NCBI GenBank assembly: GCA_036386675.1
Contig: DASVVE010000016.1
Location: forward strand, 122,561 to 186,560
Reading direction: 5' to 3'
Length of the DNA stretch: 64,000 bases
From: Chloroflexia bacterium
GTDB taxonomy: Bacteria > Chloroflexota > Chloroflexia > QHBQ01 > JADMIH01
Shown: piece by piece, positions 22,854 through 41,494 of the stretch
How the letters are laid out: the number at the start of each line of letters is the position of its first letter
How positions within the stretch are numbered: position 1 is the first letter of the stretch
Translations under genes and position numbers: made by a program
The notes under the pieces: generated by a model
The model's database searches: none
What the model was told of the DNA's origin: nothing
The model's input: only the letters and a program-made list of their open reading frames with translations

Positions 22854-23018
22854 GGGACGAGGGACGATAGGAGACGGAAACGCCAAGACGCTAAGACGCC
22901 AAGTACCACGCCAAGGTTAAAGATTGTTTTTAGTTGGGTGCTGACCTGTACCCAGTCCTCAGTCCTCAGTCCTCAGTCCTCAGTCCTCAGTCCTCATCAC
23001 TCCTATCGTCCATCGTCC
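22854..23018. repeat. Modular palindromic tandem-repeat element (copy E4) with a conserved core
   Basis: gggacgagggacgatagg...(acgccaaga-like)x4...ttaaagattgtttttagttgggtgctgacctgtacccagtcctc(agtcctc)x5...atcgtccatcgtcc. Confidence 0.8.
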
Positions 23019-23020: not shown

Positions 23021-24277
23021 TCAAGCCAGTTCCAACAGTGACCCTGTGAAGAGACCCGCGCCTGCTTGTACGGGGGGTACGTGCATGACTTTGCCCCTGG
23101 CGAAATAGGGGAAATCAGGCCACTCGGCTGGCTCTCCGGCGTTCTTGCCGGGTACTGGGAAGAGGCGGGCGGTGAGGGGCTTGTCCAGCTTGACGGCCAG
23201 CGCGGCCATGTCGGTGATGATGCGTTCGAGTTGCGGCAGGGTCACGTCGCCGGGTAGGGGCACCGTGTCGAGGCCGAGGCCGCACACGGCGGACATGAGG
23301 AGCAGGGTGTCTATGGTCACCAGCCCTTCGGCGGCGCGGTCGGCCAGCGTCTGGTCTTCGAGGGCGGGCAGCATGAGGCCGGAGTAGCCGACGGTGGGTA
23401 GCTGCTCGCGGGCCTGCTTGAGGACGCTTGTGAAGAAGGCAGCGGCGGTCAGGGTGCCGGGGCTACCCAGCGGTGCGCCACTCAGCAGCTCCAGCGCGTA
23501 GCCTATGCTCCTACTCTGCTCCGGGAAGGGGGCCATCGAAATGTCGAGGCCGGTGAAAGTGTAGCCATGCTCGGCAGCCAGGCCCACGCACACGTCGGCG
23601 GCCTTCCCGGCTTCCTCTTCCAGCAGGCCGAGCAGCCTTAGTCTCGCCTCTTCCAGCGAGCCTGCTCCCTCGAATGCCCGCACGGCCAGGTCCGCCGCTT
23701 CAAGGGCCAGGCCGAACTCGGGTCGCCCGCCGTTGCGGTCGTCCTCCTTGTAGTAGGCGGCGGGGAAGAAAGGGACGTGGGGAGGGCAGTTGCAGGCCGC
23801 CGCGAAGCGCAGGTTGCCGAAACCCTCAGGGGTGCGCTCGGCCAGCGCCTGTGTGATGTGGGCGGAGGCCCTCACGGCCTCAAGGTTGACTACGCCGCCG
23901 CTCCCGGTGCGCGTCCCCACCTGTATGCTGGCGAAGGCGTTACCCGCCGCGAGCAGTAGCTCCGGGACCAACTCGAAGAACGGCTCTGACCCATTCTGGG
24001 GCGTGGTCGCCTGGAGCGTACCCATCGAGAAGTAGTCTATACCGGCCTCAGCGCACGCACTCCCCAGGTCCGCGACTTTGTCCGGCGCTGCATCGTCAGG
24101 CAGGAGCCACTCTTCCAGGGGCTGCGCTGCCAGGCGGGTGGTCTGCACGGTGAAGCCCTGGGCCTCCAGCGCCTGCCTGCCCGCCGTAGCGAACGACCCC
24201 AACCTCGTGGCAAGCTCAAGCCGCTCTGCGTCCTCGGTGGAAAGCGCCGCCCCGGTCGTAAGCGAGCGGATGTTCAC
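23021..24277 (-). CDS. Conserved hypothetical protein (possibly DUF711/UPF0210-like)
   Basis: 418 aa, soluble, no confident motif. The family assignment is from memory only. Confidence 0.35.
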   Translation of the reverse strand: MNIRSLTTGAALSTEDAERLELATRLGSFATAGRQALEAQGFTVQTTRLAAQPLEEWLLPDDAAPDKVADLGSACAEAGIDYFSMGTLQATTPQNGSEPFFELVPELLLAAGNAFASIQVGTRTGSGGVVNLEAVRASAHITQALAERTPEGFGNLRFAAACNCPPHVPFFPAAYYKEDDRNGGRPEFGLALEAADLAVRAFEGAGSLEEARLRLLGLLEEEAGKAADVCVGLAAEHGYTFTGLDISMAPFPEQSRSIGYALELLSGAPLGSPGTLTAAAFFTSVLKQAREQLPTVGYSGLMLPALEDQTLADRAAEGLVTIDTLLLMSAVCGLGLDTVPLPGDVTLPQLERIITDMAALAVKLDKPLTARLFPVPGKNAGEPAEWPDFPYFARGKVMHVPPVQAGAGLFTGSLLELA

Positions 24278-24912
24278 TACGGAGCCGAGCCTTCGACCGG
24301 GTAGCCCGCCTGCTCCCAGAGGGTGCGCGCGTACGGCCCCTGCATTACTTTCAGGTTCGTGTACCCAAGGCTTCGCATCAGGCTCTTGGTCGAGCCTAGG
24401 CTCTCTTCATCGTTGGGGCACTCGCAGTAGATGGCTACATTCCCGGTCTTGGGTATCTCAGCCGCGCGCGTGATGATGTCGGCCTGGGGGATGTTTATTG
24501 CCCCGGCCACGTGGCTCTGCGCGTAAATCTCTGGCCGCATCACGTCTATGATCGTGACGTCGTTCGCCTCTTGCAAGGCCCGCACCTCCTGTATCGAGAG
24601 GCGCGGCACGTCAGCCACTAAGCCGAGGAAGGAGACTATGGTTGCCGTCGCCGCCGCGCTCGGATCGAGGTTCTGCGGGGCGGTGTTGCCTGATGGGTCC
24701 TGGCCGGTACTGGCGGTGTTGGTCGCTGTGCTGCCACTGTTCTGCAATACAACAAAGAGTATCACCAGCACCACAAAGGCGGCGCTGACCCCAAGTAGTA
24801 CCATGCCGAAGGTATCGGGGCCGGACTTCACGGGCTTGTAGCCGGGTGCGTTGCGGGGGTCTATCGGCCTGCTCGGCCCCCGTAGCTTGGTGGGTTTTCG
24901 CTTGGTGCTCAT
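24277..24912 (-). CDS. Membrane-anchored rhodanese-domain protein
   Basis: Internal start MSTKRKPTKL, one TM (MVLLGVSAAFVVLVILFVVL), and a C-terminal rhodanese fold with active-site CECPND. The stop overlaps the downstream start (ATGA). Confidence 0.7.
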   Translation of the reverse strand: MSTKRKPTKLRGPSRPIDPRNAPGYKPVKSGPDTFGMVLLGVSAAFVVLVILFVVLQNSGSTATNTASTGQDPSGNTAPQNLDPSAAATATIVSFLGLVADVPRLSIQEVRALQEANDVTIIDVMRPEIYAQSHVAGAINIPQADIITRAAEIPKTGNVAIYCECPNDEESLGSTKSLMRSLGYTNLKVMQGPYARTLWEQAGYPVEGSAP

Positions 24913-25036
24913 GTTGCCCTTTCTGAGGGAGAATTGCGAAACTATAACATAGCGAACGTGGGAGCAACAAGCCAGTTCCTGAGCCAGGGAAGGTAGGAGC
25001 CAATGCGGTGACACACCAATTGTGACGCTAATATCC

Positions 25037-27979
25037 CTAACTCGGACCCAGAGTGGGTATAGTTGCGGGAAGAGTCTTGATTAGCTCAACAATGGCTTCC
25101 TGGGCCTGCCCTGAAAGCAGTTGTTGACCTACGGTGATTAACACGATAGCCAGCGGAGACAGATAGCCTAAGATGAAGCGTGCATCTCGTAGCGGGTAGA
25201 AATCAAAAATGTGTCGCCAGTAGTAGCCCTTCTCCCGGACGGTTGTAACGTCCATGAGCACTCCCAGTGCTACCAAAAATACCACTAATTCTAAAGTGCG
25301 GAAGAACCAACTGGTGCTCAGTGCTTGCCCGGTCCATGCATGGATTAAGGCATCGAAGCCCAAGGATAACCCATAAACACCTGCCAGGGCCACACCCTTA
25401 AGTGCACCATTGTTCCACGGCAGGTAAGTCGGCAAGTACGCATACAGACACCCCATGATGAATGCGGCAACTAGCCAGAAAGCTATCTCGTCGAGCACCC
25501 CCCTGGCAATCTGGAACACTGCCATAGTGGATGATGAGAATGCTTCTACTCCGCCCTGAGTGAGAAGTACATAGATGTAAAAGACAATAGGGAACAGGGC
25601 AAGCTTCCAACCGATAGTTACTGCTAGTTGTCCATTCTCCCACCAAGTGTTCCTAGGCCCCAATGCTAAACCGAGCCTATGTGGTGACAAACGCGACGGT
25701 GCCATGTGCGGTAAACGCAGCCATCTCGTCCTTCTGGTCGTGCCCCGTCGCAATGCCTCAATTTCCTGTTCTATAGCTTGATACTCCCGGCTGCTCTCAC
25801 CTGCATCCTTCTTGCCTTCCGAGAATTCCTTGTATTGAGTCGCCTCCTTGTTTTCCAGCCCTCTAATTGCTTTTGCCCGTTCGAGAAATTCGCTAACGAG
25901 GGCGGCACGTCTCGCGAACAGGTCTTCCTGCGTCAAACCAGGATTATGCGCAAGAATGCTGGAAATAACCCTTTCGACAGCCCTGAAGCGCCTCGTAAAA
26001 AGCTTGTTCATCAAGAAGAGAGCTGCGATGAAAGCAAGTGGGACCCCAAAGCCAAATAGTTGGCCGTCGGTGCCCACCACGAACGTGGCAAATAGGAGTG
26101 CCATTGAAGCCAAAGCCCAGCGGTCAGCGCTAAAAAGTAGGACGTTTGGAGACTGCGAAGCCTGGATATACAGCACGCGTAACAAGCCGAACAATGCTAT
26201 GTATGGTAAGAAGGCTATTAATTGAGCAAAAAGACTGAAGGGGTAACTTCCAAGTGAGGCAATTACCGACTCGAACCACTCTGAAGATCCAAAAGTGGAG
26301 GTATTGAATACAGTTTCCGGTGCGCTCCAGATCTTACTTCTTCTATATTCAAGTCTCACCCACTGTGCGAACGTGAGGAGCGCAAGCAAGGCAGGAATGG
26401 CGTTGAGCCACCACTGGTACCTGGCTCCGCGCGCCGGGTCGATCTTGATTACCTTCGCTGCGACTGGGTGCGGAGCGAGTGCGATGGCAAAGCGCACCAG
26501 TCCAGCCAACACGAAATACACCAGGCACAAGAATACCAGGCCGACGAGTAGCAACCACCACGGCTGATCGAACCATTCCCACAACTTATTGTCATTCGGT
26601 GCAGAGCTTGACATAAAATAGGCTATGGAACTGAACGCCGAGGGTAGGTTCAGCACTGTTAAGCTCGCCAAAGTAGTAAGTCCAATCAACAAGCGGTAGA
26701 CAAGTGGTAGCTTTCGGTTAATTTTCCGCCAGAATAGGACAGAGGCTAATGAGAAGAAAAAAGCAGAGGTAAGCAACAAAATTGAGTTCTTGAAGCCGAG
26801 GAGGAGGACCGAATTTCTGACTGTCTCATCGTAAAACCCGGAACCAGGAGCGCTGCTAGAGATGATAAGCGGATAAGCGAATATCCATAATCCATAATAT
26901 AGGAGTCCTTCCGCCGGTAGCAGCATTAGGACCAAAAGCATCCAACGTAGTGATTTTCTTGCAGGTGTCACTACATCTCTTGTGTTCTTTTTCTTCTCGG
27001 CTCCCTTTGCCGCCAGGATTCTAAACGTAGAAAAGAGAATGACGGTAGGTATAGCATAGCTTACGAGTAGGTGCAGAAAGGACCACATCGATTGATCAAC
27101 AAGAGAGCGTAGCACTGTCAGGGACAAATCAGAGGTAAGATGGCCCCGCACAGTCACATCCTGGTCAATGGCATTTTCTGACAGGTTCCAACTCACACTA
27201 CCTTGTTCGTTCAATATTGATGGTGACGGGCTTGCAGAGATGACTCTCATCCCTATCAGTTGCATGTCAATGATCCAGGTTGTCGGCGTCAGCCACTCGG
27301 CGGTTGTGAGTGCATCCCTGCCGCTTATCTCGAAAAATACCTCTGATTCAGAGGAGCTAATGTACCATGGCATTATTGTGCGAGGGTAGGAATAGAGCGC
27401 ATTAGTATTGGTGATAGTCACAGTAGCGACGTTCTGGTCTACTGATATGACAGGCGGCGCAATGCGGCTGAAGCTCTCGTGCCAGGACCCAGGCAATATG
27501 TCTTTCAAAGCCGCAAGGTAGTTCTCATCGTTCCGAGTGTGCCGTAGTAAGGTAGCTACTTCGGGACGGCTCGCGGGGAGGCTGATTGAAAAAGTACTGG
27601 TGACGATAGGGTAGGTAGCGGTGGTTGCGTCAACATCGAGTCGTGTTGTCACAGTTATTGGAGCGGGTGGGGAAGGCGGCGTAGCTACCGTATCGCTCGC
27701 ACCCTCGGGAAGTATAGTGATAGTGAGGGGTGACTGTAGAGTAAGAGTTAATACGGCAGAGACGGCTTCCGCCGGCAGGAGAGATGTTCCTGGCATGCGT
27801 CCAACACCGGGCTCACTATGTAGAGCAGCATTACCAAGCTTTACGTAACTTGACTGCGAAGCCAAATAAGCTGTTGCTCTGGCGGATGTGGTAGTTACAG
27901 TTGAGGCAGCCAAACCAAGGAGTAACAACAATCCGCCGAGTAGCCATATGCTGCGTGGTTGAATTGAGAAGTGTGACAT
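25037..27979 (-). CDS. Large polytopic membrane protein (~980 aa) with a ~330-aa N-terminal extracytoplasmic domain, unknown function
   Basis: Start MSHFSIQPRSIWLLGG... at 27979, preceded by GGAGG. Signal/anchor, then ~18 hydrophobic segments. Visibly lower GC than the flanks. Confidence 0.6.
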   Translation of the reverse strand: MSHFSIQPRSIWLLGGLLLLLGLAASTVTTTSARATAYLASQSSYVKLGNAALHSEPGVGRMPGTSLLPAEAVSAVLTLTLQSPLTITILPEGASDTVATPPSPPAPITVTTRLDVDATTATYPIVTSTFSISLPASRPEVATLLRHTRNDENYLAALKDILPGSWHESFSRIAPPVISVDQNVATVTITNTNALYSYPRTIMPWYISSSESEVFFEISGRDALTTAEWLTPTTWIIDMQLIGMRVISASPSPSILNEQGSVSWNLSENAIDQDVTVRGHLTSDLSLTVLRSLVDQSMWSFLHLLVSYAIPTVILFSTFRILAAKGAEKKKNTRDVVTPARKSLRWMLLVLMLLPAEGLLYYGLWIFAYPLIISSSAPGSGFYDETVRNSVLLLGFKNSILLLTSAFFFSLASVLFWRKINRKLPLVYRLLIGLTTLASLTVLNLPSAFSSIAYFMSSSAPNDNKLWEWFDQPWWLLLVGLVFLCLVYFVLAGLVRFAIALAPHPVAAKVIKIDPARGARYQWWLNAIPALLALLTFAQWVRLEYRRSKIWSAPETVFNTSTFGSSEWFESVIASLGSYPFSLFAQLIAFLPYIALFGLLRVLYIQASQSPNVLLFSADRWALASMALLFATFVVGTDGQLFGFGVPLAFIAALFLMNKLFTRRFRAVERVISSILAHNPGLTQEDLFARRAALVSEFLERAKAIRGLENKEATQYKEFSEGKKDAGESSREYQAIEQEIEALRRGTTRRTRWLRLPHMAPSRLSPHRLGLALGPRNTWWENGQLAVTIGWKLALFPIVFYIYVLLTQGGVEAFSSSTMAVFQIARGVLDEIAFWLVAAFIMGCLYAYLPTYLPWNNGALKGVALAGVYGLSLGFDALIHAWTGQALSTSWFFRTLELVVFLVALGVLMDVTTVREKGYYWRHIFDFYPLRDARFILGYLSPLAIVLITVGQQLLSGQAQEAIVELIKTLPATIPTLGPS

Positions 27980-28180
27980 AACTCGACTACCTCCACTATG
28001 GGAAAGTTCGCTACCATCAGGTGCCCGACATCCCTGCATGTGTCTCACAACGTCCTATATTGTACACAGAACTCATCAAATTTCCATGCAGGGTGAGAGG
28101 TATCCGTAGATGCTGCTAAGGACACGTATCGTGGCGGCATGTGTCCTTAGCAGCATCGCACATGTCGGATGTAATTAAGG

Positions 28181-28343
28181 ATGCAACTACAGGTCAAAAC
28201 TTGCCCATGTTTGCAGTGAAACTTTGCAACTGCCTGTGGAGAAAGTCTGCAACTACCCTCAATTTAGCAAACAAAGTATGCAACTGGCCTCGTACTCCTG
28301 TGCTGCGACGTCGGCCACAGAGTCGCAAATCTCTGCAACTAGC
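28181..28343. promoter_or_regulatory. Array of five direct repeats TGCAACT(A/G)(C/G)C in the upstream region of the large membrane-protein gene
   Basis: Copies at 28181, 28224, 28247, 28278 and 28333. A further copy plus its inverted partner at 28381/28431 form a hairpin. Confidence 0.35.
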
Positions 28344-28380
28344 CTAACCCTCTCTCCTCACAAACTGGTGTAGCTAAACA

Positions 28381-28441
28381 TTGCAACCAGCCTACAGGAC
28401 TCTGAGTTGTTTCTCAAGTCAGAGTCCTGTAGGCTGGTTGC
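28381..28441. terminator. 24-bp perfect inverted repeat hairpin downstream of the lipoprotein gene
   Basis: tgcaaccagcctacaggactctga-gttgtttctcaag-tcagagtcctgtaggctggttgca. Confidence 0.45.
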
Positions 28442-28526
28442 ACTGGGTGTCCGTCCCGAATTGTGGAGCAAAGCTAGACCGATACCACGTGGGGAGCGAG
28501 TAGGCTGTTACGTGCTAGAGATCCAA

Positions 28527-29651
28527 TTATTTATCTGCGCAACTCGCAGTTCCCCAGGATTCGAGTGATAGACTGGTTGGCGGGAACGACTCGTATGCAG
28601 CAACCCTCGTCCAAGCAAAGCCTGAGATATGATACCTTAGACCTTTACCCTGACCTGTCGCTCTGTCCCAGAGGGGTACAGGGACTATGAAACCACTCGT
28701 CTGTAAGAAGTCAAGGGTGCTCCTGGTCTCCGGACTTGTGCCGATGTTCTCGATTGTCTGTAGCCAGTCTCCTACAGATGCCCTATGGTCGTTGGCATCC
28801 TCTGAGTTGGCGTAATTTACGTTCTCGCCGGGCGTTGGTAAGGCAGAAGCTCTACCCGGACTGCCTGTGCCGGAACTGAATGCTAACCATCTGAAGCCCC
28901 GGGCACCCGCAGTATCTAGACTCACCTTGTTCTTGTCGTGGCGACTTTTCGATCCTTTGAAGCTGTCGGCGTGAACTGCCAGAGGATACACCTTACAGGG
29001 GGTGTTGGTCTCCCACTGTCTTGTTTGTAGGTTGTAAGCAATCATAGAGGTGGAACCGTCTTTCTGGGGAGCGATCAGAATAACGCGAGGCAAGTCTATG
29101 TATGCGATGTCCAGGGCGCCTTGCTTCTGTGGCGAGGTATACAGGATAACGTCACTTAGGTCCCGGCCTTCGAGTGTGGTCGTAAAAACCTGAACCGCAC
29201 CCTGTAGCGGATCATCACTTAGCACTCCGGCGTTCAGATACGCATATTCGTTACCCAACTTACCTCCCCAACAGGAAGTCACATGAAAAGTCCTGCTACC
29301 CCCTCCGCACGTTCCCAAACCGGGTTCAGGCGTGTCTTGCGGCTCAGGAGTGGCCGGAGGAGGTAGTGTCGGCATGGGTGCCTTGTTCTCAGCGACCCTG
29401 GTCTTCGCTGCGTCTCGCTTCGCTTGATCCATATCCAGGAAGGCTTGTTTTGTAGCCTCTACTTCCGCACGCGTCGGCGTATGAGTCTGGGAGGCGGCGA
29501 CTGTCTGATTCGGCACGCTGAGGGCATTGCCGGAGTCGTTCTGCGTGTCGTCGTTGTTACCGTTACATCCTGCGATGAGCAACAGGCTCACTAGTAGAGC
29601 AGGTCCCAGTACCCTTATGGCTGTGGTCCGTCTCTTGGTACTCACTTTCAC
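28527..29651 (-). CDS. Lipoprotein (lipobox LIAGC), unknown function
   Basis: N-terminus MKVSTKRRTTAIRVLGPALLVSLLLIAGCNG with a Pro/Thr-rich linker. 374 aa. Confidence 0.65.
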   Translation of the reverse strand: MKVSTKRRTTAIRVLGPALLVSLLLIAGCNGNNDDTQNDSGNALSVPNQTVAASQTHTPTRAEVEATKQAFLDMDQAKRDAAKTRVAENKAPMPTLPPPATPEPQDTPEPGLGTCGGGSRTFHVTSCWGGKLGNEYAYLNAGVLSDDPLQGAVQVFTTTLEGRDLSDVILYTSPQKQGALDIAYIDLPRVILIAPQKDGSTSMIAYNLQTRQWETNTPCKVYPLAVHADSFKGSKSRHDKNKVSLDTAGARGFRWLAFSSGTGSPGRASALPTPGENVNYANSEDANDHRASVGDWLQTIENIGTSPETRSTLDFLQTSGFIVPVPLWDRATGQGKGLRYHISGFAWTRVAAYESFPPTSLSLESWGTASCADK

Positions 29652-29740
29652 TTTGTTCCTCCTGACCCTGGCTTGCTACAAAAGTATGCCCAACCGTACA
29701 CAGTTGATCGCTGGAGTGGTACAAACCTGAGCATACAGGC

Positions 29741-32700
29741 TTATGGATAAATAATGTCGGTTACTCCATATTGCAAAATTGACTGAGGTTCAAGTAAAGG
29801 GTTAGGCACCTTCTGGGGTGCAGTAGGAGATCCAGTTAGGGGAGCATGAGGCGAGCTAAGCATATCTGTCAATGCTTGCCATGCTCGATGAGGTGGTAAG
29901 TAGGGACAGCCAGCACCTCCTGCCGCGCCGCTAGTGCAGGAGTAGGGTTGCCAATTACCCGTGCAGTCGGCCCCGTCCTGGGTCGTACATTTGTCATTAA
30001 ACCGCTCGTTGAAGCGTGCCGGTGTACTTGTCATACGTGCGGCACATGTGCTGTTTACGGCACAGCCTGACATGGCTCCTAAGAAACGCATATTGCTGCC
30101 CTGGTGAACCTTGGCATACCATTTGACGTTGTACCATTCCCACATGTAGGGTGTGAGGTATATTTGTGGCAGCGGCCAGGCATTAACCAAACCATATGAC
30201 ACATAGTACACACGATTCAGTGCCTCGCTTACTAGAGGACTTTGCGCCCATGTTGTCGGGCTCCCGCCTCGGGGGCAGCCCTCACAACTACCAAAGTTGA
30301 ACGCCGCCACATCTGGAATTGAGGTAAAGCCTTCTGCCCAGTACTTGGTCCCAGACTTCGCCGAGTCGTTGATCCTGTATCTACTCCATCGATCTGGATC
30401 GGCTGTCACGTTGTCAGCATTCACATTGGGGCAGGGACCTCGTTCACCTAGCACGGTATCCCTACAGTCCAGGTCAGTGGATGCATAGTACTCAAAGTCA
30501 TAACCACCTGCAAAGCTGACAGCACCACTCAAATATGGGTCTGACGCAGCTTCCTGACGCAGAGCACTTACCATTCCGGCCCACGCCGCTCCATGGCTGT
30601 AATTCAGATCCATATTATCCTGCCAGATATGTGGGCCATCAGCCAGGTACGCGGTATTGCTAACGCCTAGAACGATCGTCAGGTCAGCCACCGTGTTAGG
30701 AGCCTGGCAGCCCTGTCCAAGCGTATAGCCTAGGGCGAACTCTCGCGCTATAGCCTGGACTTCAGCCAACGAAACTAACGTACGAACAACTATGAGTCGT
30801 GCTCCATATTCGACACCTGGTGGGGAACTTACGCTTTGGATATATGGCCCTCCAAAATCCAGCACTACCAGACCTGTCTCGCCTCTTTGCCGCGCTTCAC
30901 ACCCCAAGAGCCGTGCATCGGCAGGATCGGCACTCTGTATGTAATAACTTGTGGTATGTTTTGGAGGTGTCGGTAAGGCAAAGCCCTGGGCTGAAGATAC
31001 CGCCCACTGACCTGTACCTGACTGTGCAGTAGCTACAATTTGATACATCCGGTATGCTGAATCTCCCGGCAGCGTAACTGTGTTCCATCCGCCTGTCAGC
31101 GTAACGGCAGATGTAATCGTTTGGGCGTCAGACATACCGCAGATACCCCATTGGTCGCAACTAACCTGATTTCCAGCTCTAATGTCAATTGTAGTAGCGT
31201 AGTTGCCTTCCTGGTATAGCCTGATAGTACCAACATTCGTAGGTGTTGTCAGGTCAACACGCCAGTTGTCACTTCGTGCCCCCCATATTGTAGCTTCGTT
31301 GCCATCCGTGGCGTTACCGGCCATGTATGCACAGCCACCGAAACATTCGGCACCATCCCAGGCGCGCTTGCCCAGGAACACGTCATCGGGAGGTGGAGGA
31401 GGCGGAGGAGTACCCATGATCCCTTGTATGGTGTGTACTCTCCAGCCGTCCTGTATCCCAATATGTGCTGTTGCTACAATGCTATACATACGGTACGCTG
31501 CATCTCCGGGCAGAGCAATCTCGTTCCACCCATTTACCACAGCCACATTGGCCTTTATTGTTCGCGGATCGCTCGTATCACAAATGCCCCAGCCGTCGCA
31601 CCCTACGACAGTGCCTGCGACTATGTCAACAGCCGTAGCATAGTTTCCGTCCTGGAAGAACGTTATCTTTACGATCGGCACTTGCTGCCCAACATCTACA
31701 CGCCAACTGTTGCTTCTGGCTCCCCAGTACGTGGTGCTGTTGTTGTCTACGGCATTTCCTGCCATGTTGGCACAGCCGCCAAAGCACTCGTTTCCGTCCC
31801 ACGCCGGCTTGCCTAGGAAGACGTCCTCCCCGGCCGCCGGGGTGGCCGGAGTGCTGGAAGGAGTAGCCGTGTTTGTTGATGTGGGTGTCGAGGTAGGTGT
31901 CGAAGTGGATGTAGATGTTGCTGTGAATGTTGGCGTGGGAGTAGCTCCAGGAACACCGTTACAGATGTAGGCATCCTGCACCTTGCTGCCCGTGTTATAG
32001 AGCGAACTGTCCATGTATAGAGGAGCGGACGGCGCGGTTACGGTGCTCGTGTACACAGCTACACCGTTGCGGTAGTAGCGCACTAGCCCCGAGCTACCCA
32101 CTCCAATAGCCAGCTCGTCACCTACGTCGTACAAGCTCACCGCTCCTTTAGTGGTACCGCTCTCTGCAACCGTCAAGCCACTGGTGCCCGGGTCTATATA
32201 GAAGGCGTAGTCCAGGTTCTGCCAGGTAACGTTGTTGGAGGGGTCATCGGAGAGGCCAAACATCAATATGTCCTGCGTCGAGGCCACCGTGGCGCGCACG
32301 TATCCTGTGCTGCCGGGCTGCAGGGCCGCACTAGATATGGCACCCGCGTTCCAGCCCGTACCTCCCGCCGTCTTCGCCAGGGTATTGCCTGTGGGGGTGG
32401 CATTCTGCCCGCCGGTCCACGTTACCGGCTGGCAGTTGCTCGTAGATATAGGTTCAGTGAGGCTGGCACCGCAAAGAGATGCATCCTGCACCTTGCTGCC
32501 CGAAGTGTAAAGGGAGCTATCTAGGAACAGTGGGTACTTGGGCGCTACCGTGCTGGTGTAGAGTAGCTCACCGTTCTTGTAGTAGCGGACGATCTGTGTA
32601 TCGTCCACGGCCACTCGCAACGTGTCCCCGGCATCGTACAGCCCATATCCTCCCCTGTTGGTCCCCTTCTCCACGATCTGTAATTTGCCCGCGTACGGGT

Positions 32701-34150
32701 CTATGTAGAAAGCATAATCGATGCTCTGCCACTGCACGTCAATATCGGAATTGGACAGGCCAAACATGAGGATGTCGCCGGACGAAGCCACTGTCATCTG
32801 AACATAGCCACGCCCTGACAGGATGCCCTTCCTGGAGGCACCTCCTGCGTTCCAGGCGCTGCCCCCGCTTACCTTTGTGATCGTATTCCCTGCGGCCGAG
32901 ACGTTGCGCTTACCCGTCCACGCCCCGTCCAGGCTGTCGCATGGCGACTGAGGCAAAGCCGGGTGCGCGCTCGCCCCACAAATCTGAGCATTCTGTACCT
33001 TACCACCCACATTCCAGATGGAGCTATCCATATAAAGGGGGTAAGTGGGTGCCGCTGTGCTGGTGTAGACGAGCTGGTTATTGAGATAGTATCGCACTAC
33101 CCCCGCTTGGTCTACCGCGATAGTTAGTTCATCTCCCGCATCATACATGCTCCACAAGGCTTTGGTGTTGCCCTTCTCCTGGACTGATAGCACGCCTACG
33201 CCCGGGTCTATATAGAAGGCGTAGTCCAGACTGGTCCAGTTTACGTCGCTGTCCTGGTGGGAGAGGCCAAACATGAGGGTATCGATGCCTGAAGCTATGG
33301 TGGCTCGCACGTACCCGCTGTTGCCGGACTGTATAGCCTGGCTGGAAGCAGCCCCGGCGTTCCAGCCGCTGCCCCCGGCCGTCTTCTGAACAGTGTTGCC
33401 GGTGGACATAGCGTTGCGGGTGTGGACCCACGTCACCGCCTCACAGGTGGAGGTAGGCAGCGGCGCGGGCGCACTGCCCCCGCAAATCTGCGCGTTCTGC
33501 ACCTTGCCGCCCGAGTTCCAGATGGAGCTATCCATGTACAAAGGAAAGGTCGGGGCTACCAGGCTGGTGTAAAGGAGGTTGCCATTGCGATAGTAGCGTA
33601 CTGAAGTACCCTCTACAGCTACTCGCAGTACATCTCCGGCCGCGTATGCGCCGTAGCTGGCGAGGCCAGCTCCACGCTCTATTATCGTGAGACCCCCCGA
33701 GACTGCCGGGTCTATGTAGAACGCGTAGTCAAGAGACTGCCAATGTGCATCTTTATCAATGCGAGACAGCCCGAACATGAGCGTATGGCTGGTTGAAGCC
33801 ACCGTCGCTTCAACATGCCCGCTGCTTCCCGATTGGATGCCTACACTGGAAGCGGCACCTGCATTCCAGGCGCTACCGCCCGCTGTTTTCTCAATCGTGT
33901 TGCCGGTAGCAACCACGTTCCGCTTGTGGACCCATGTTACTGCCTGGCAGTCTTCCGGTCCGCTCATGAGGGCTGCCGCCGACGCAACGTCAACACCTGG
34001 GAAGGGGGTGAGGGTGACCGACTGTAGTGAGAGGGATGAAAGGGTGAGAAACAGGATCACCATGAAGACGATGCGAAGATACCAATGGGAAGAGCGTGGG
34101 CGGAACATGATGTGGGGGCATCCCTTCGCGTGTGAACGCATGTAGAACAC
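29741..34150 (-). CDS. Giant secreted multidomain protein (1469 aa): 5x LamG/ConA-like repeats, 2x discoidin (F5/8 type C)-like domains, and a ~500-aa Cys-containing C-terminal domain
   Basis: Five ~150-aa repeats with TGNTxxKTAGGxxWNAGAxS...MFGLS...DYAFYIDP...GDxLxVAV...RYYxNGxLxYTS. PT/S-rich and poly-Pro linkers. AWDGxECFGGCAxMAGNAxDxNxxTxWGARS discoidin-like modules. The start is uncertain among three Met codons (34150, 34141, 34108). Confidence 0.7.
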   Translation of the reverse strand: MFYMRSHAKGCPHIMFRPRSSHWYLRIVFMVILFLTLSSLSLQSVTLTPFPGVDVASAAALMSGPEDCQAVTWVHKRNVVATGNTIEKTAGGSAWNAGAASSVGIQSGSSGHVEATVASTSHTLMFGLSRIDKDAHWQSLDYAFYIDPAVSGGLTIIERGAGLASYGAYAAGDVLRVAVEGTSVRYYRNGNLLYTSLVAPTFPLYMDSSIWNSGGKVQNAQICGGSAPAPLPTSTCEAVTWVHTRNAMSTGNTVQKTAGGSGWNAGAASSQAIQSGNSGYVRATIASGIDTLMFGLSHQDSDVNWTSLDYAFYIDPGVGVLSVQEKGNTKALWSMYDAGDELTIAVDQAGVVRYYLNNQLVYTSTAAPTYPLYMDSSIWNVGGKVQNAQICGASAHPALPQSPCDSLDGAWTGKRNVSAAGNTITKVSGGSAWNAGGASRKGILSGRGYVQMTVASSGDILMFGLSNSDIDVQWQSIDYAFYIDPYAGKLQIVEKGTNRGGYGLYDAGDTLRVAVDDTQIVRYYKNGELLYTSTVAPKYPLFLDSSLYTSGSKVQDASLCGASLTEPISTSNCQPVTWTGGQNATPTGNTLAKTAGGTGWNAGAISSAALQPGSTGYVRATVASTQDILMFGLSDDPSNNVTWQNLDYAFYIDPGTSGLTVAESGTTKGAVSLYDVGDELAIGVGSSGLVRYYRNGVAVYTSTVTAPSAPLYMDSSLYNTGSKVQDAYICNGVPGATPTPTFTATSTSTSTPTSTPTSTNTATPSSTPATPAAGEDVFLGKPAWDGNECFGGCANMAGNAVDNNSTTYWGARSNSWRVDVGQQVPIVKITFFQDGNYATAVDIVAGTVVGCDGWGICDTSDPRTIKANVAVVNGWNEIALPGDAAYRMYSIVATAHIGIQDGWRVHTIQGIMGTPPPPPPPDDVFLGKRAWDGAECFGGCAYMAGNATDGNEATIWGARSDNWRVDLTTPTNVGTIRLYQEGNYATTIDIRAGNQVSCDQWGICGMSDAQTITSAVTLTGGWNTVTLPGDSAYRMYQIVATAQSGTGQWAVSSAQGFALPTPPKHTTSYYIQSADPADARLLGCEARQRGETGLVVLDFGGPYIQSVSSPPGVEYGARLIVVRTLVSLAEVQAIAREFALGYTLGQGCQAPNTVADLTIVLGVSNTAYLADGPHIWQDNMDLNYSHGAAWAGMVSALRQEAASDPYLSGAVSFAGGYDFEYYASTDLDCRDTVLGERGPCPNVNADNVTADPDRWSRYRINDSAKSGTKYWAEGFTSIPDVAAFNFGSCEGCPRGGSPTTWAQSPLVSEALNRVYYVSYGLVNAWPLPQIYLTPYMWEWYNVKWYAKVHQGSNMRFLGAMSGCAVNSTCAARMTSTPARFNERFNDKCTTQDGADCTGNWQPYSCTSGAAGGAGCPYLPPHRAWQALTDMLSSPHAPLTGSPTAPQKVPNPLLEPQSILQYGVTDIIYP

Positions 34151-34865
34151 CTGTCTATAGAGGATACTGCCTCAAGACCAGGTGCTCGCCTTTATTAGGT
34201 TGTAACAGCTTGCAGTAGGAATAGAGTTCCTACCGGAGTCCAACAGAACAGCAAACGTAGGGCGTGACAACGACGATAAATCTCCTGACTATAGAGGTCA
34301 AGAGACTGAACGGCCTTGGTAAACACGTAAGGTCGCTGCACACGCTACACGGCGATACAGAGCGCGCCCGTGTGCAATCAACGCGAAGTGACGGTTTGCG
34401 GTTTTTGGTGAGCTTAGTTTACGAAAGTCGACCTTTACAAACAAGCTAATTGACTACGTAGTTTAGCGTAACTATGGTCTTAAGCACGTGGCGATGGAAA
34501 TGGAGAGCGACCAATTACGGAATGTAGTGAGAAATGGCGGATTGGCAGACATAGTAACATGAATTACAAGCCACAACCCCACTCCCTGGTAGGTCAGCCC
34601 ACTCTATCGGAGATAGGGTGCGCGCAACGTTATTGGTGTTAATCATGATTGCTAAGATACGGGCGTCACACCTAAATCCTCCATCCATATGTGTTGCACT
34701 TGACTGGTTACCAACCTGTGACTACACACATCATGACGCGGCTGCATGTTAGGCCCGACACAAAGAACATGTAGCGGTGAAGATCAGCATTGTTGTAATG
34801 GACCACCCGCCACGGGTATAGATGGAAAAGAAAGGACATATGCGATATGACTAAAGTCGATACTA

Positions 34866-35766
34866 AGAGCGCCTTTCAAAACCTGGCCCGTGACTTGCGG
34901 TGGTAGTGGGCACTATGAGCAAGCCACTAGTACCAGACGAACTATGGGAGATTGTAGAGCCACTGTTGCCAGCTGAGCCACCTAAGCCAAAGGGAGGTCG
35001 TCCTCGCGGGCCGGGCCGAGCAGCCCTTGCAGGGCTCATCTTCGTGCTGCGAAGGGGCCTACCCTGGGAGATGCTACCCCAAGAGATGGGCTGTGGGAGT
35101 GGAGTAACCTGCTGGCGCAGATTGCGTGAGTGGCAGAAGAAGGGAGTGTGGCGCAAGCTGCACAGGGCGTTGCTCAACCGCCTGGGAGAAGCAGACAAGA
35201 TAGATTGGTCACGCGCCAGCCTGGACTCAGATACTGTTCCAGCTAAGGGTGTAAAAAGGGGGACCCGAAAGCTACGGCTGTTGGGCCGAACCCCACAGAT
35301 AAGGGCAACACCCAGAGGGTGCCCGGCACGAAGCGCCATGTTGTGGTCGAGCGGCAAGGCATACCGCTGGCCGTGAAACTCACCGGTGCCAACACCCACG
35401 ACTCGAAGGTGTTCGAGGAGATGGTGGACAGCATAGAACCTATCAAACGTCCACTCGGCAAGCCTGGCCGACCTCGCAAGCGCCCGGACAAGTTGCACGC
35501 TGACAAGGCGTATGACATATCCAGGTGCCGCAAGGCTCTTGCGAAGAGGGGCATCAAGTGTCGCATAGCGCGTAAAGGAGTAGAGAGCAGCCAGAAGCTG
35601 GACAGGCACAGGTGGGTGGTTGAGCGCACCCTCTCCTGGCTCGACCGTAAACGTCGGCTCACCATCCGCTACGAGCGTCGTGACGATATTCACCTGGCGT
35701 TCCTGCATCTTGGTTGTGTCCTCATCTGCCTCAATCACCTGTTATGATGGTTTTGAAGGGCGCTCT
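34866..35766 (+). mobile_element. IS5-family (IS427-group-like) insertion sequence, ~900 bp, with 18-bp imperfect terminal IRs
   Basis: IRL agagcgcctttcaaaacc (34866-34883) matches IRR ggttttgaagggcgctct (35749-35766) with one mismatch. Encloses orfA/orfB. Confidence 0.85.
34900..35747 (+). CDS. IS5/IS427-type transposase orfAB, produced by a -1 programmed frameshift at A AAA AGG (35253-35259)
   Basis: orfA 34900-35376 (frame 1) and orfB 35319-35747 (frame 3). The -1 fusion reads ...GVKKGDPKATAVGPNPTDKGNTQRVPGTKRHVVVERQGIPLAVKLTGANTHDS, the typical IS5 DDE transposase context. Confidence 0.8.
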
Positions 35767-35892
35767 AAGCACATCGCACTTGGCCAGTTGCAGACTTTTG
35801 CTTCACCTCAGTTGCAAGGCTTGTCACACTATAGTTGCAAACTTTATGGGATCCGACAGTGCAGTAGGAGATCCTCGCCTATCGTCCATTGT

Positions 35893-36831
35893 CTACTTCA
35901 GTAGCGGGCTTTTGCCTCCCCAGTGCTTGGAGAAGTGGTCGTAGAATAGGAAGTTCTGGGCGTAGCCTGCATACTTGCCGAAGCGGTCGCGGAAGGCCCC
36001 GACCACGGCGTTGTAGGCGGAGGTGGTAATCGTCTTGCGGTCGGCCCAGTCGGGGAAGTAGAGGTCCTTGGCAAGCTGCCACACGTGGGTGTCTACCGGC
36101 ACCGCCTCGGGCTTGTCCAGCGAGAAGAGGCACACGCAGTCGGCTATCTTGGCCCCGATGCCGTTTAGAGCCACCAGTTCGCGGTGAGCTTGCTCGTATG
36201 GCATGTCGCGCAACGAGTAGGCCCAGCCCGGCCCCCGCTCTACTATTTGCCTGGCGACCTTAACGATGTTGGTTGCTCTGAAGCCCAGCGAAGATATGCG
36301 CGTCAGGTGGTTCACGTCGCAGTGGGCCAGGGTCTCCGCGTTGGGGAAGGAAAAGTAGCGCGTGCCGTCCAGTTCTGCTACCAGGTCTCCATACTCGCGG
36401 CTGAACACGCTGATGGAGTAGGCGATCCGGGGTACGCTGTTCGCGGTGGAGCAGACGAACGATAGGATACACTCCTCCGGCTCTTGCCGCGCCACCCGCA
36501 GGCCCGACCAACGCCGCGCCGCCTCACCCGCAGCCGGGTCTGCCGCCTCGATAAGCCGGACGATTTCTCCCATGTTTACACCAAGTTGGAAATAGTCGCG
36601 GATCAGCGCATCGTCGGAGGCCTGCGGATAAGTCCACCATGTGAAGCGCTCACCGTCCTGCCTTATGCCTACGACGGTGGCCCGCACCACGCCCGTCCAC
36701 CAGCCGTCCGCGTTGCGCTTCCAGCGGAAAGCTTGCCCGGAGGCCAGCGTGTCGTCAAGGGAGAACTGTAGAGGGTCGTAAGTGAACGAGTTAAGTTGCA
36801 ACTGGGGAGGGGTGTATGTGGTCATACGCAA
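35893..36831 (-). CDS. ogg: 8-oxoguanine DNA glycosylase / AP lyase (OGG1 family, HhH-GPD)
   Basis: OGG_N region followed by an HhH-GPD motif LVALNGIGAKIADCVCLF...PVDTHV. Confidence 0.75.
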   Translation of the reverse strand: MRMTTYTPPQLQLNSFTYDPLQFSLDDTLASGQAFRWKRNADGWWTGVVRATVVGIRQDGERFTWWTYPQASDDALIRDYFQLGVNMGEIVRLIEAADPAAGEAARRWSGLRVARQEPEECILSFVCSTANSVPRIAYSISVFSREYGDLVAELDGTRYFSFPNAETLAHCDVNHLTRISSLGFRATNIVKVARQIVERGPGWAYSLRDMPYEQAHRELVALNGIGAKIADCVCLFSLDKPEAVPVDTHVWQLAKDLYFPDWADRKTITTSAYNAVVGAFRDRFGKYAGYAQNFLFYDHFSKHWGGKSPLLK

Positions 36832-37891: not shown

Positions 37892-38013
37892 AAGGACGAT
37901 AGAGGAGTGGTTAGTGGTTAGTGGTTAGTGGTTAGTTATTATCCGACCATCCTAATCTTTGCGCGTCCTTTGCGCTCTTTGCCTCTTTGCGTTTTCGTCT
38001 CCTACCATCGTCC
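37892..38013. repeat. Modular tandem-repeat element (copy E5), inverted orientation of the E1 family
   Basis: The reverse complement contains gacgatgg...acgaaaacgcaaagaggcaaagagcgcaaaggacgcgcaaag (near-identical to the E1 segment) followed by (actaacc)x4. Confidence 0.8.
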
Positions 38014-38847: not shown

Positions 38848-38934
38848 AGAGTGGATAGTGGATAGTGGATAGTGGTTAGAAGCTCTTTGCTAACCACTAT
38901 CCACTATCCACTATCCACTATCCACTATCCACTC
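38848..38934. repeat. Palindromic element of GTGGATA tandem repeats between rplU and rpmA
   Basis: gagagtggatagtggatagtggatagtggttag-aagctctttg-ctaaccactatccactatccactatccactatccactcc. Confidence 0.75.
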
Positions 38935-38937
38935 CAG

Positions 38938-39252
38938 TTACAGAGCGATTTCCTTGATCGAGAGCCTGGTGAGGCCCTGGCGGTGACCCGTCTTGCGGCG
39001 GATGCGCTTCTTCGGCTTGTACTTGAACACAACGAGCTTGGGGCCTTTGGCCTGCCCGATGACGGTGGCGATCACACGAGCGCCCGCGACTGTGGGTGTG
39101 CCAACTTGCACGCCGTTGTCGCCCCCGCCCACCATGAGCACCTCGCCCAGCTCTACCTGGCTGCCCTTCTCGGCATCAAGCAGTTCTACCTCTATCGTAT
39201 CACCGGGAGCTACCCTGAACTGGTGGCCTCCGGCCTTTATGATTGCGTACAC
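38938..39252 (-). CDS. rplU: 50S ribosomal protein L21
   Basis: MYAIIKAGGHQFRVAPGDTIEVE...KYKPKKRIRRKTGHRQ. Confidence 0.95.
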   Translation of the reverse strand: MYAIIKAGGHQFRVAPGDTIEVELLDAEKGSQVELGEVLMVGGGDNGVQVGTPTVAGARVIATVIGQAKGPKLVVFKYKPKKRIRRKTGHRQGLTRLSIKEIAL

Positions 39253-39488
39253 CTAATTTCCTCCGCTACTATTTGGGTCACAGCCTCTAATTATATCCGC
39301 GTTTGGGCGTGCTGTCAAGCGTGAAACTCGAGGCGAGAGCGCAGCTTAGGGGTCGCGGATTCTCTGCATGTGCAGTACGTACGGTATGCAGCCGGAAGCA
39401 GCGGAAGCGCAAGTAGTACAAATACGAGGAGGACTTGCACCGGCTCATGCTCTGCATGTTCAGGAAGCTGGCTGAAGGGGCAAGACAG

Positions 39489-40088
39489 CTAAGGACTAGC
39501 GTGGAGAGTGTTGAGGATCAGAGAAGCATTGCGCGCCCAAGTCTCACGATAGAAGGCGAGGATTAAGAGGTCCATGTAATGGCCGTTCCAAAAGACGTGC
39601 TCCCGCAATCGCCCTTCTTCAACGAAGAACCGCCCAATGCCGCTCTTGAAGCCCTGGTAGCTCTCTTCAGTGCTCTCCATATAGATCTTTCTGAAGGGCC
39701 AGGCGTTGAACGCATAGTTGAAGCCCAGCGCTATGCCCTCGGCAATCAGCCCGGCCCCCTGCACTTCGGGCACGCCAATCGCTGAAAGGTAGGCGAAGCC
39801 ATCCCGAAAGTTGGGCGAAGTAATTGCGATTAGTCCCAAAGGTTGCCCGGAATCGACGCCTTCGACAATAAACTGGGCAAGGACGCTCTCCCATAGTGAC
39901 CCGGCGATCTTGTCTGGGCTAGGCGTGGCCCCGGCGAAACGGACACGCCCGCCGGACAACGGCGAGGTCATAAGGTCATAAAGAAAGAAGCTGTCCTGGT
40001 CTGAAATGACCCGCAGGCGGATGTGCCGCGTGCGCATCAGCGGGAAGGGACGTAGTGGCTGTTGTCCGGTAGCGGAGTCGTCAGACAA
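39489..40088 (-). CDS. GNAT-family acetyltransferase (Acetyltransf_3/RimL-like)
   Basis: TRHIRLRVISDQD...LYDLM N-terminus typical of PF13302. Last gene of the MauE-like operon. Confidence 0.7.
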   Translation of the reverse strand: MSDDSATGQQPLRPFPLMRTRHIRLRVISDQDSFFLYDLMTSPLSGGRVRFAGATPSPDKIAGSLWESVLAQFIVEGVDSGQPLGLIAITSPNFRDGFAYLSAIGVPEVQGAGLIAEGIALGFNYAFNAWPFRKIYMESTEESYQGFKSGIGRFFVEEGRLREHVFWNGHYMDLLILAFYRETWARNASLILNTLHASP

Positions 40089-40812
40089 GACTTATGGCCC
40101 CGGCCAGAATGAACAGGCTGGCAGCTACCGAGACGAAGCTGTCAGAGCCGCGAATGAAGAGGCTGGCGGACTGCAAGCGGTTGGAGGCGACCAGTTGCAT
40201 CATAAGCGGCACGGCTCGCCCGAGTCCAAACCCCAGGGCCACAAGCAGAGCATTTGCAAGGGTGAATTGTGCAAGGAGTAGTGCGAGCAGCAGAATATAG
40301 GGTGCGGCTGAGGGCACGTAGGTGCGCAGTCCCGTTCCTAGTTCCACTCCGAACCGGTAGGCACCGCGAACGAGGCTCCCACCGAACACCTCGGCAGGGA
40401 TCAGGCGCCGCGACTCAGGTAAAGAGATGATGCTCGACAGCGGGCCATCCTTGGACAACAAGACAAAGACCGCTGCTATGCCAAGCATGGCAGCCCGCAC
40501 CTCAGCACTGAGCGGTTCGGCAAAACCGCTCAGTACCCACGCGCAAAATCCTGTGAGCAAGGCTCCATGCGAAGTCCCCACCAGGTATGCGGCGACGATC
40601 TTATAGTCGAACAGGGACCGATGTCTCTTGGGCGGCAGCAACACGGCTGCGCTGTTAAGACTTCAAATCGACCCCGCGAGCGACAACCCCGCAGCGAAGC
40701 CTATGCTCAGTGTAATGAGTGTTTCGGTCCGCACGAGCGCGGTCGCACCGATAAGCCCGGCGAGGATCACCCAGATCCACGAAACTGGTCTTGTCAAGGC
40801 ACTTATGGACAT
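40081..40812 (-). CDS. Integral membrane protein interrupted by a single in-frame TGA (plus 40663-40665). Possibly a CcdA/DsbD-like thiol-disulfide transporter; either a pseudogene or recoded.
   Basis: ORFs 40663-40851 and 40081-40644 are in the same frame, separated only by tga: ...FAAGLSLAGSI*SLNSAAVLLPPKRH.... ~8 TM in total. The resemblance to the CcdA motif AGLxSFxSPCVLPLLP is loose. Confidence 0.35.
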
Positions 40813-41447
40813 AGCGTTAGCTGGTCGTCGCAGGACACGAGGCCCTGGCATATAGTAGGCTCCCAGTAATCGTTACCGTCAAACTTCTTGTAGCCATCGT
40901 GGCACCGGAATACCGCCGACTGCTGGCAGTTCCCACAAGCGCCCACCTTCCACTTCCAGGCATCTTTGCCGTTGCAAACGTCAGGCTCTCTGTCTTTGTA
41001 CTGAATACTACCTCGCAGGCCGGTGAAATGCCAGTTGTACGATGGATTGTTGACTGGATCGGCAGCCTGCTCGGCGCACGTAGCACAAAACCAGGGGTCC
41101 ATATGGTCTGGAGCGAAGCCAAAGCAAGCTTCGTTGCAGGTACCGCCATATGGAGGATAGCCTGCACAATCGTAGTAGGTGGTGTAACTTGCACTGGCTG
41201 CCCGTTCGAGCGTCCCGATATTCGCTAATTCGCCGAGCGCTCCGAGAGCGCCTCCTCTTGCGGCCGTTGCCGTCTGCAAGCGCTGCACAAGTTGCATTCC
41301 GAGAGGTACCCCAATCAAGCTCAAGATGTTGCCCTTGCGCATTGGATGGTCCGGGTATGCTTCCACAACGTCCGAGTCGGTGCTGGGCCGCCGCCCCAAC
41401 CTTTCCGCTCCTTCGATAGTAGGAATGTCCTGTATGTCAAAGTTCAT
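40803..41447 (-). CDS. 12-Cys protein with an N-terminal ~90-aa non-hydrophobic region and a ~125-aa C-terminal Cys/Trp-rich domain
   Basis: Strong RBS aggagg 6 nt upstream of ATG 41447. C-terminal domain YYDCAGYPPYGGTCNEACFG...DPWFCATCAEQ...VCNGKDAWKWKVGACGNCQQ...RCHDGY...YWEPTICQGLVSCDDQLTLCP. No N-terminal signal peptide. Confidence 0.55.
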   Translation of the reverse strand: MNFDIQDIPTIEGAERLGRRPSTDSDVVEAYPDHPMRKGNILSLIGVPLGMQLVQRLQTATAARGGALGALGELANIGTLERAASASYTTYYDCAGYPPYGGTCNEACFGFAPDHMDPWFCATCAEQAADPVNNPSYNWHFTGLRGSIQYKDREPDVCNGKDAWKWKVGACGNCQQSAVFRCHDGYKKFDGNDYWEPTICQGLVSCDDQLTLCP

Positions 41448-41494
41448 GGTGGTCCTCCTGTCATTTGATCCCCACTAGCTAGATGGAATATCGA

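Follow-up and report, generated by a model that had tools for sequence, protein, structure and literature searches.

A 64,000-nucleotide (nt) window of contig DASVVE010000016.1, from a Chloroflexia bacterium, carries a block of foreign composition between the gene for 8-oxoguanine DNA glycosylase (ogg) and a gene for a rhodanese-domain membrane protein. The block spans window positions 24973–35878 (10,906 bp) and holds three large minus-strand genes, which encode a polytopic membrane protein of the DUF6185 family, a lipoprotein and a secreted multidomain protein (hereafter the giant), together with an intact insertion sequence (IS) of the IS5 family (Table 1). We consider it likely that this block is a composite, horizontally acquired flexible island that occupies a hypervariable slot and was built by at least three events.

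Base composition sets the block apart from its surroundings. Its G+C content is 53.7%, against 60.6% elsewhere in the window; positions 25037–34862 alone have 53.3% and the remainder of the window 60.6%, and outside the block none of 337 windows of 9.8 kb drops below 57.9%. In 1-kb windows outside the island, G+C averages 60.6% with a standard deviation of 2.8. The sliding-window trough lies at 49–54% between 25.0 and 32 kb, at ~59% between 32 and 34 kb and at 46–50% in the non-coding DNA at 34.15–34.86 kb, with other DNA at ~60–65%. The dip is thus uneven, and it is deepest, among the genes, in the DUF6185 gene (50.6%), followed by the lipoprotein gene (54.6%) and the giant gene (56.0%), with intergenic DNA at 48–50%. 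G+C at third codon positions (GC3) is 0.54, 0.56 and 0.59 in the same three genes (island range 0.48–0.59) and 0.76–0.83 in flanking genes. Tetranucleotide usage correlates with the rest of the window at 0.32–0.45 in the island and at 0.82–0.96 elsewhere. The block therefore deviates in both base composition and codon usage, as genomic islands do. A sequence-only reading of this DNA had already proposed a lower-GC block with atypical codon usage and three large minus-strand open reading frames (ORFs) at 25037–27979, 28527–29651 and 29741–34150. These coordinates are correct, the codon bias is borne out, and the sliding-window and tetranucleotide analyses confirm the dip and exclude uniform composition. 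The by-eye estimate of ~50% against 62–65% had the right direction and the wrong size, the contrast being ~7 points of G+C and not 12–15.

We fetched related loci through the flanking DUF711 protein, which yielded 19 loci from Chloroflexia/Chloroflexota metagenome-assembled genomes (MAGs) at 94–40% identity, and compared them with the window genes by tblastn and blastn. Locus L002 is on contig DASVRN010000110, L004 on JALZHG010000005 and L005 on DASVQO010000016. In locus L006 (DUF711 75% identical) the gene order is TK, ogg, 344 bp, rhodanese, DUF711. In L007 (93%), ~1 kb with a 238-aa ORF separates ogg from rhodanese, and in L003 (91%), ~1.1 kb holds an ORF on the opposite strand for an unrelated membrane protein of 325 aa. 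The island is absent from L007, L003 and L006, where the ogg–rhodanese distance is 0.3–1.1 kb, and the short fillers of L007 and L003 are unrelated to each other. It is absent as well upstream of rhodanese in L002 and L004 (both 94%), which carry Rhs toxin cassettes there, and in L005 (86%), which carries a gene for a 641-aa BNR-like secreted protein and a glyoxalase-family gene. Nucleotide homology with L002, L004 and L007 ends at 24971–24972, and that with L007 restarts at 35879. All told, seven genomes show six different contents, and none of the other six carries any of the island's three genes. The ogg–rhodanese interval is a hypervariable slot with different cargo in each relative, and the conserved flanks hold the island only here. 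Acquisition of the block is well supported. Horizontal acquisition, as the sequence-only reading had suggested, thus withstands the comparison of synteny it called for: the block is foreign in composition and not conserved in relatives, and its three proteins have no close homologue beyond copies from the same population. Those copies are identical island proteins deposited under the name 'MAG TPA: Chloroflexia bacterium' (HEX8597690-92) and found, together with the IS, on an ENA contig and a JGI contig (L033); the latter is 99.99% identical to the window and represents the same population, not a second strain. The source sample is ENA ERZ27253081, JGI 3300034760.

At the equivalent position, L002 (113–8907) and L004 (82–5011) have an Rhs/YD polymorphic-toxin locus. 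It encodes a 2765-aa SpvB/RHS-repeat protein, whose C-terminus is an α/β-hydrolase-like toxin (GHSxG), and a membrane protein of 131–136 aa; L004 additionally carries an orphan cassette for a C-terminal toxin, paired with a small membrane protein of its own. PADLOC found nothing credible among the fillers of the relatives.

These comparisons leave a native origin improbable. On that account the block would consist of surface genes that evolve fast, are weakly expressed and have relaxed codon usage, and that were present ancestrally at this site and lost or replaced in the sampled relatives. It would accommodate the clade-native AGTTGCA array element that the window has in common with L002 and L005, the variability of the slot in every genome, so that loss would be frequent, and the repeat region of the giant gene, which at 58% G+C approaches the host. 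However, GC3 lies 0.2–0.3 under that of all flanking genes, and tetranucleotide usage is discordant as well. The DUF6185 protein has no homologue above 36% identity, and the nearest relatives of the giant and the lipoprotein sit on contigs of 52–55% G+C among unrelated neighbours. Moreover, the most distant relative, L006, has the simplest junction (344 bp), which argues that the ancestral state was empty.

The three genes do not share one history, although they had been taken for a single module. Only the giant and the lipoprotein form a pair that is conserved. In every closer context examined, the gene encoding the giant's C-terminal domain has a gene for a lipoprotein homologue as its next neighbour downstream. 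These are four independent contexts: L028 (domain 75–81% identical, lipoprotein 56%), L029 (56% and 49%), L031/L032 (39% and 36%) and L030 (37% and 32%). These contigs have 52–55% G+C, except for L030 with 60%. The DUF6185 gene, by contrast, never adjoins the pair elsewhere, the homologues examined have unrelated neighbours, and in the window it is split off from the pair by a clade-conserved array. The array lies in the 480-bp spacer between the lipoprotein and DUF6185 genes, of which positions 28155–28424 are 80–82% identical to non-coding DNA of L002 (9101–9278) and L005 (2557–2756). In both loci the homologous DNA sits between variable cargo and rhodanese. In L002 nothing separates this shared element from the conserved rhodanese promoter; in the window the DUF6185 gene, which has the lowest G+C of any gene in the island, is placed exactly between the two. 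Since the pair is conserved elsewhere and DUF6185 occurs apart from it, at least two events are needed in addition to the IS. It follows that the giant and lipoprotein genes form a single inherited cassette, that DUF6185 was acquired separately and that the IS adds a third event.

The IS is an ordinary IS5-family element. Its terminal inverted repeats (17/21 nt) lie at 34863–34883 and 35749–35769, of which 34867–34883 and 35749–35765 fall within the element, and read GAGCGCC(T/C)TTCAAAACC. Base-by-base reading places a TAA target duplication at 34864–34866 and 35766–35768. Two overlapping frames, orfA (DUF4096) and orfB (DDE_Tnp_1), are joined by a −1 shift at GTAAAAAGG (35251–35259) into a 282-aa protein with a GPNPTDKG motif. 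The fused product matches the NCBIfam model NF033580 (IS5 family) with 242.3 bits (cut-off 110) over model positions 4–258 of 258. Transposase match, terminal inverted repeats and short target-site duplication all assign the element to this family, whose two-ORF members share its length of ~0.9 kb, 17-nt inverted repeats, 3-bp TAA duplication, −1 slippage on A5G and GPNPTDKG motif; nothing unusual was seen in the window's copy. After restoration of the target no ORF spans the junction, so no gene was disrupted, and the insertion is probably recent.

The element had been taken for the boundary of the island. It is real, but the island continues beyond it: ~110 bp without homology in the relative separate it from position 35879, where the relative's homology resumes. 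Because it has its own TAA duplication and occurs as a single copy in the window, the IS is a simple insertion in the island's non-coding edge, neither boundary nor vehicle but a passenger. Mobilisation of the island by this element, as a composite or one-ended transposon, would draw on the intact IS at the ogg-side edge and on a related IS remnant upstream of the homologous gene pair in L028, and is very improbable. Besides the single copy, the private duplication and the 110 bp up to the true junction, the remnant in L028 has the opposite orientation and a different position, which indicates an independent insertion of the same IS lineage. No IS5-family element is known to transduce 10 kb one-endedly. 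A composite transposon was rejected on its own terms, as it requires two bracketing IS copies and the window has one. The L028 remnant, at 1506–1619 of that locus, is 77% identical to the window's IS over the last 79 nt, including the right end, and retains 30 aa of orfB.

In the account that we favor, genes would be replaced or added in the slot with no dedicated integrase at work, and the likeliest route, which we assume, would be recombination in or near the conserved flanks. One event would be the arrival of a two-gene cassette, bringing a secreted multi-lectin protein that ends in an α/β-barrel-like domain and its partner lipoprotein. In another, the DUF6185 gene would have been inserted separately between the clade-conserved non-coding array and the rhodanese promoter, and in a third the intact IS would have inserted into the cassette's upstream non-coding DNA. 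An island of foreign composition in a variable slot between core genes, with an IS as passenger, is a familiar kind of object. As in known flexible genomic islands and integration hotspots, conserved core genes flank the site (ogg/TK at one end, rhodanese/DUF711/ABC at the other), its cargo varies and is made up mostly of toxins and of proteins that are secreted or belong to the envelope, the base composition deviates and a dedicated integrase is missing. Unlike what has been described for such islands, a clade-conserved AGTTGCA array inside the slot splits the cargo here.

Several observations weigh against this account. No integrase or recombinase family was found among the island ORFs (the IS transposase is their sole mobility gene), no tRNA gene in the 64 kb and no direct repeats flanking the island. 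The DNA of L002, L004 and L005 ends before ogg, and the placement of their cargo in the slot is read from the rhodanese side only. All relatives are MAGs, in which misassembly at variable regions is possible. The giant's repeat region, with 58.3% G+C, is nearer to host composition than other island DNA. As to function, no CAZy or Pfam family matches the giant's C-terminal domain, so that an enzyme activity is conjecture.

Functionally, we tentatively read the cargo as an exported glycan-binding enzyme with a membrane-anchored partner, accompanied by an unrelated envelope protein. The giant, whose 1455-aa gene call comes from the ENA/NCBI copies, is laid out as a signal peptide, four repeats, a Thr/Pro linker, two discoidin-like modules and a C-terminal domain of ~400 aa. 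The repeats have a DNA period of 504–510, match PHROG 19691 'virion structural protein' over four stretches (E 5.7e-38), show a weak Neuralized match and belong to no Pfam family. The same domain recurs in giant proteins sorted by the type IX secretion system (T9SS) and in RHS, RCC1-like and phage-tail proteins, one of them labelled 'LamG-like jellyroll'; judged by sequence, it is a promiscuous module of lectin type. Of the two discoidin-like modules, the second matches PF22633 with 31.7 bits (cut-off 27.8) and PF00754 with 28.2 (cut-off 28.2), and the first alone scores 16–17 bits, under threshold.

The PHROG match raises the reading of the locus as a prophage remnant in which the giant would be a tail fibre or receptor-binding protein, and some homologues of the repeat do bear phage-tail domains (PF13550). 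We consider this highly unlikely. The repeat is found just as well in T9SS, RHS and RCC1 proteins, the giant carries a signal peptide, and the island yielded neither another phage gene nor an integrase or att site. Scans of viral contigs (IMG/VR) found no relative of the lipoprotein or DUF6185. With only the repeat module matching a PHROG and the two other proteins absent from IMG/VR, a prophage or tail-fibre locus was rejected.

In this family, conservation lies at the other end of the giant. Its C-terminal domain has 20 detectable homologues: some consist of this domain alone, and the others join it to FA58C, DUF642, NPCBM-associated, DUF11 or Tectonin modules. The best match, at 75–81%, is on the 55%-GC contig L028. 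The domain's invariant features are D1218-x-E1220 (within GGYDFEYY), a W, GSCEGCP and PLPQIY. Both acidic residues, D1218 and E1220, are unchanged across 19 sequences and come after a predicted strand (E141–148 of the domain). Searches of Pfam, NCBIfam and PDB sequences gave no match and no membership of a described glycoside hydrolase (GH) family; Foldseek against PDB returned nothing significant, only generic structural similarity. A conserved domain combined with variable binding modules is typical of an enzyme rather than of an adhesin. Judged by this architecture, the giant goes beyond a lectin or adhesin and is probably an enzyme that acts on carbohydrates, and the most economical reading would be an undescribed barrel-type catalytic domain with variable binding modules. 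A surface or adhesion module, as first proposed, is plausible for the N-terminal two-thirds and does not suit the conserved domain, whose fusion to varied carbohydrate-binding modules is typical of enzymes. The protein would be exported by its N-terminal signal peptide and bind glycans through the four ConA-like repeats and two discoidin-like modules, and the C-terminal domain would act on polysaccharide with D1218 and E1220 as a candidate acid pair. Multimodular carbohydrate-active enzymes join a catalytic barrel to variable carbohydrate-binding modules such as F5/8 type C, DUF642 and NPCBM-associated. The giant and its homologues resemble them in combining one conserved barrel-like domain of ~400 aa, which bears an invariant acidic pair, with changing glycan-binding modules, and the giant has a signal peptide and Thr/Pro linkers. 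The giant differs from such enzymes in that its domain has no Pfam or PDB match and that, in the closer subfamily, a downstream lipoprotein of ~270–420 aa is obligate, which is atypical.

The lipoprotein gene follows the giant gene after a gap of 89 bp and is probably co-transcribed with it. Its N-terminus, ...LLVSLLLIAG|C29, fits the lipobox [LVI][ASTVI][GAS]C, which marks it as a predicted lipoprotein, and the lipobox is kept in L028 (LIGC) and L031 (LTGC). Searches against Pfam, NCBIfam, PADLOC, PHROG and PDB gave no match, nor did its C-terminal half against Pfam at E<=5. PDB sequence searches came back empty both with the proteins and with profiles. More distant stand-alone homologues of the giant's domain have no lipoprotein neighbour; in L035, the product of a small gene downstream of a distant domain homologue aligns with the partner lipoprotein at an hhalign probability of only 52%. 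The disulfide-stabilised lipoprotein would work with the giant on the outer face of the membrane, as an anchor or receptor or as a regulator or inhibitor. In L031 (positions 1–5303; GCA_038239605.1, JBBSEP010000022.1), a gene combining DUF642 with the domain, followed by the lipoprotein gene, lies ~3–8 kb from type VII secretion-like genes, which encode a 1444-aa FtsK/SpoIIIE ATPase, a YukD-domain protein and a BTAD regulator.

A different role for the pair would be an inter-bacterial competition module, made of a secreted effector that degrades cell wall or exopolysaccharide and a lipoprotein that serves as its immunity protein or inhibitor. We regard this as unlikely, though less so than the other alternatives. 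It would suit a slot in which L002/L004 have Rhs/YD toxins, genes for small membrane proteins of immunity-like kind and an orphan toxin cassette, a repeat domain that also occurs in RHS and phage-tail proteins, and strict adjacency to a downstream extracytoplasmic lipoprotein in four other contexts. Yet the architecture is the reverse of that of a polymorphic toxin, with the C-terminal domain conserved and the N-terminal modules variable. The partner is large (374 aa; 266–420 aa among homologues) and well conserved, with distant identities of 49/36/32% near the domain's 56/39/37%; overall it diverges less than a typical immunity protein, although in L028 it is 56% identical against 75% for the domain. 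In addition, orphan copies of the immunity gene did not turn up, the three island proteins had no meaningful PADLOC match, no toxin family matched, and the distant stand-alone domain homologues lack the lipoprotein neighbour. Rhs/YD polymorphic toxin loci resemble the island in their equivalent position in L002/L004 and in the repeat domain that some RHS proteins share with the giant; the window protein differs in that it lacks RHS/YD repeats, a variable C-terminal toxin and an accompanying small immunity gene. Broader still, and a little less likely again, is the idea that the slot is the clade's dedicated competition and surface hotspot, marked by AGTTGCA arrays that would serve as landmarks for recombination or regulation. 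In it the pair, as a new glycan-cleaving barrel family that lectin modules deliver and a cognate inhibitor or immunity lipoprotein, would alternate with Rhs cassettes.

The remaining gene of the island encodes a rare protein. The homology search that the sequence-only reading had proposed for the 980-aa protein identifies it as a member of the DUF6185 family with a best match of 36%: PF19683 matches with 124.8 bits (gathering threshold 25) over profile positions 14–818 of 825, and NCBI names the identical protein 'DUF6185 family protein'. An exhaustive HMMER search found the family to be rare, with 337 representatives in 1.84 billion and a best identity of 36%, and a word-indexed search retrieved only the protein itself. 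A metagenome scan for DUF6185 loci gave five short contigs only, with uninformative neighbours, and no literature on DUF6185 was found. The N-terminal part comprises a signal or anchor helix, a disordered stretch (24–102) and a β ectodomain (~109–281). The remainder has ~13–14 transmembrane (TM) helices, a cytoplasmic coiled coil (~684–745) and a conserved C-terminal helix bundle. It would be an independent envelope protein, and by analogy its LppM-like ectodomain suggests that it may handle lipids or glycolipids. LppM of Mycobacterium tuberculosis (Rv2171) binds phosphatidylinositol mannoside (PIM) glycolipids (PMC5217060). It is a small lipoprotein with a C-terminal helix, unlike the window protein with its 980 aa and 13–14 TM helices, and at 6% sequence identity between them glycolipid binding is only an analogy.

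Two non-coding arrays of AGTTGCA-core sites, in inverted orientation to each other, bracket the IS, the giant gene and the lipoprotein gene. The sites have a consensus of about GG[CT]AGTTGCA[GA]A[CG]TTT, and 8 of the 22 exact AGTTGCA heptamers in the 64 kb fall within the two arrays. Over 376 kb of fetched loci, a position matrix found further sites only in L002 (9074–9261) and L005 (2585–2742), at the equivalent place. The arrays could be operators, iterons or recombination landmarks. The hairpin at 28379–28445 is a probable transcript end or structured element, and Rfam returned only sub-threshold matches to microRNA precursors for it, as for a generic hairpin. Scans for promoters and terminators did not rise above shuffled expectation, and in the 716-bp leader of the giant gene no ORF, Rfam family or homologue was found.

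Table 1. Features of the island and its flanks, in window coordinates
Feature	Position	Strand	Details
Flank: rhodanese-domain membrane protein, 211 aa from M35 of the ORF	24277–24912	-	promoter region 24913–24972 kept in relatives
Whole inserted block	24973–35878	.	rhodanese promoter to ogg stop; limits from homology, junction reading and composition
DUF6185 family polytopic membrane protein, 980 aa	25037–27979	-	ORF extensible to 28048
Perfect 17-bp inverted repeat, 15-nt loop	28109–28157	.	upstream of DUF6185, where L002 homology ends
Array A: six ~25-nt sites, core AGTTGCA	28172–28396	-	80–82% to L002 9101–9278 and L005 2557–2756
Hairpin, 31-nt arms, 94% complementary, 5-nt loop	28379–28445	.	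~80 nt after lipoprotein stop; conserved in L005
Lipoprotein, 374 aa	28527–29651	-	predicted lipobox LIAG|C29; invariant C115, C127, C219, C371
Secreted multidomain protein (giant), 1469 aa	29741–34150	-	start likelier at 34108 (M15), giving 1455 aa
C-terminal ~400-aa domain, residues 1071–1469	29744–30940	-	α/β-barrel-like, candidate catalytic
Two discoidin/F5-8 type C-like modules	30965–31825	-	52% identical; poly-Pro linker between, Thr/Pro/Ser linker before
Four tandem ~168-aa Cys-bracketed repeats	31916–33952	-	ConA/LamG-like by sequence pattern; 53–66% mutual identity
Non-coding leader of giant gene, 716 bp	34151–34866	.	48% G+C
Intact IS5-family insertion sequence, 899 bp	34867–35765	+	
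Array B: three AGTTGCA-core sites	35778–35849	+	inverted relative to array A; between IS and ogg stop
Flank: 8-oxoguanine DNA glycosylase (ogg)	35893–36831	-	

Elsewhere in the window, an interspersed repeat of ~40–110 nt occurs at 22855–22930, 2843–2950, 4004–4176, 37953–38013 and 56938–57094 with 75–92% identity. It is present in intergenic DNA of L002, L003, L005, L007 and L010 as well and may resemble repetitive extragenic palindromes (REP) or miniature inverted-repeat transposable elements (MITE). A milder atypical block at 38872–43285, flanked by ribosomal-protein genes (L21/L27/L31) and a membrane-protein gene, contains seven small ORFs with GC3 of 0.59–0.69 against a typical ~0.8; their sole Pfam match is a MauE-like membrane protein (42006–42581). 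At 1004–1978, an ORF of low GC3 (0.54) with a DUF6069 domain stands amid high-GC3 genes. A long run of plus-strand genes at ~5758–19809, ahead of ABC-transporter genes, looks like a polysaccharide-biosynthesis cluster, and the Pfam matches of an identical JGI gene make its last gene (18607–19809) a group-1 glycosyltransferase.

The novelty lies in the cargo, namely an unannotated domain family whose lipoprotein partner is obligate, a lead on DUF6185 and the AGTTGCA arrays. The analysis defines two uncharacterised families, the barrel-like domain of ~400 aa with an invariant D-x-E and its co-inherited lipoprotein partner, and gives DUF6185 its first structural lead in the form of an LppM-like ectodomain. 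Current understanding is not overturned; the value lies in annotation and in candidate proteins that may act on carbohydrates or on the envelope. Taken together, these observations document a flexible-genome hotspot in uncultured Chloroflexia, in which accessory surface and competition genes have been little studied.

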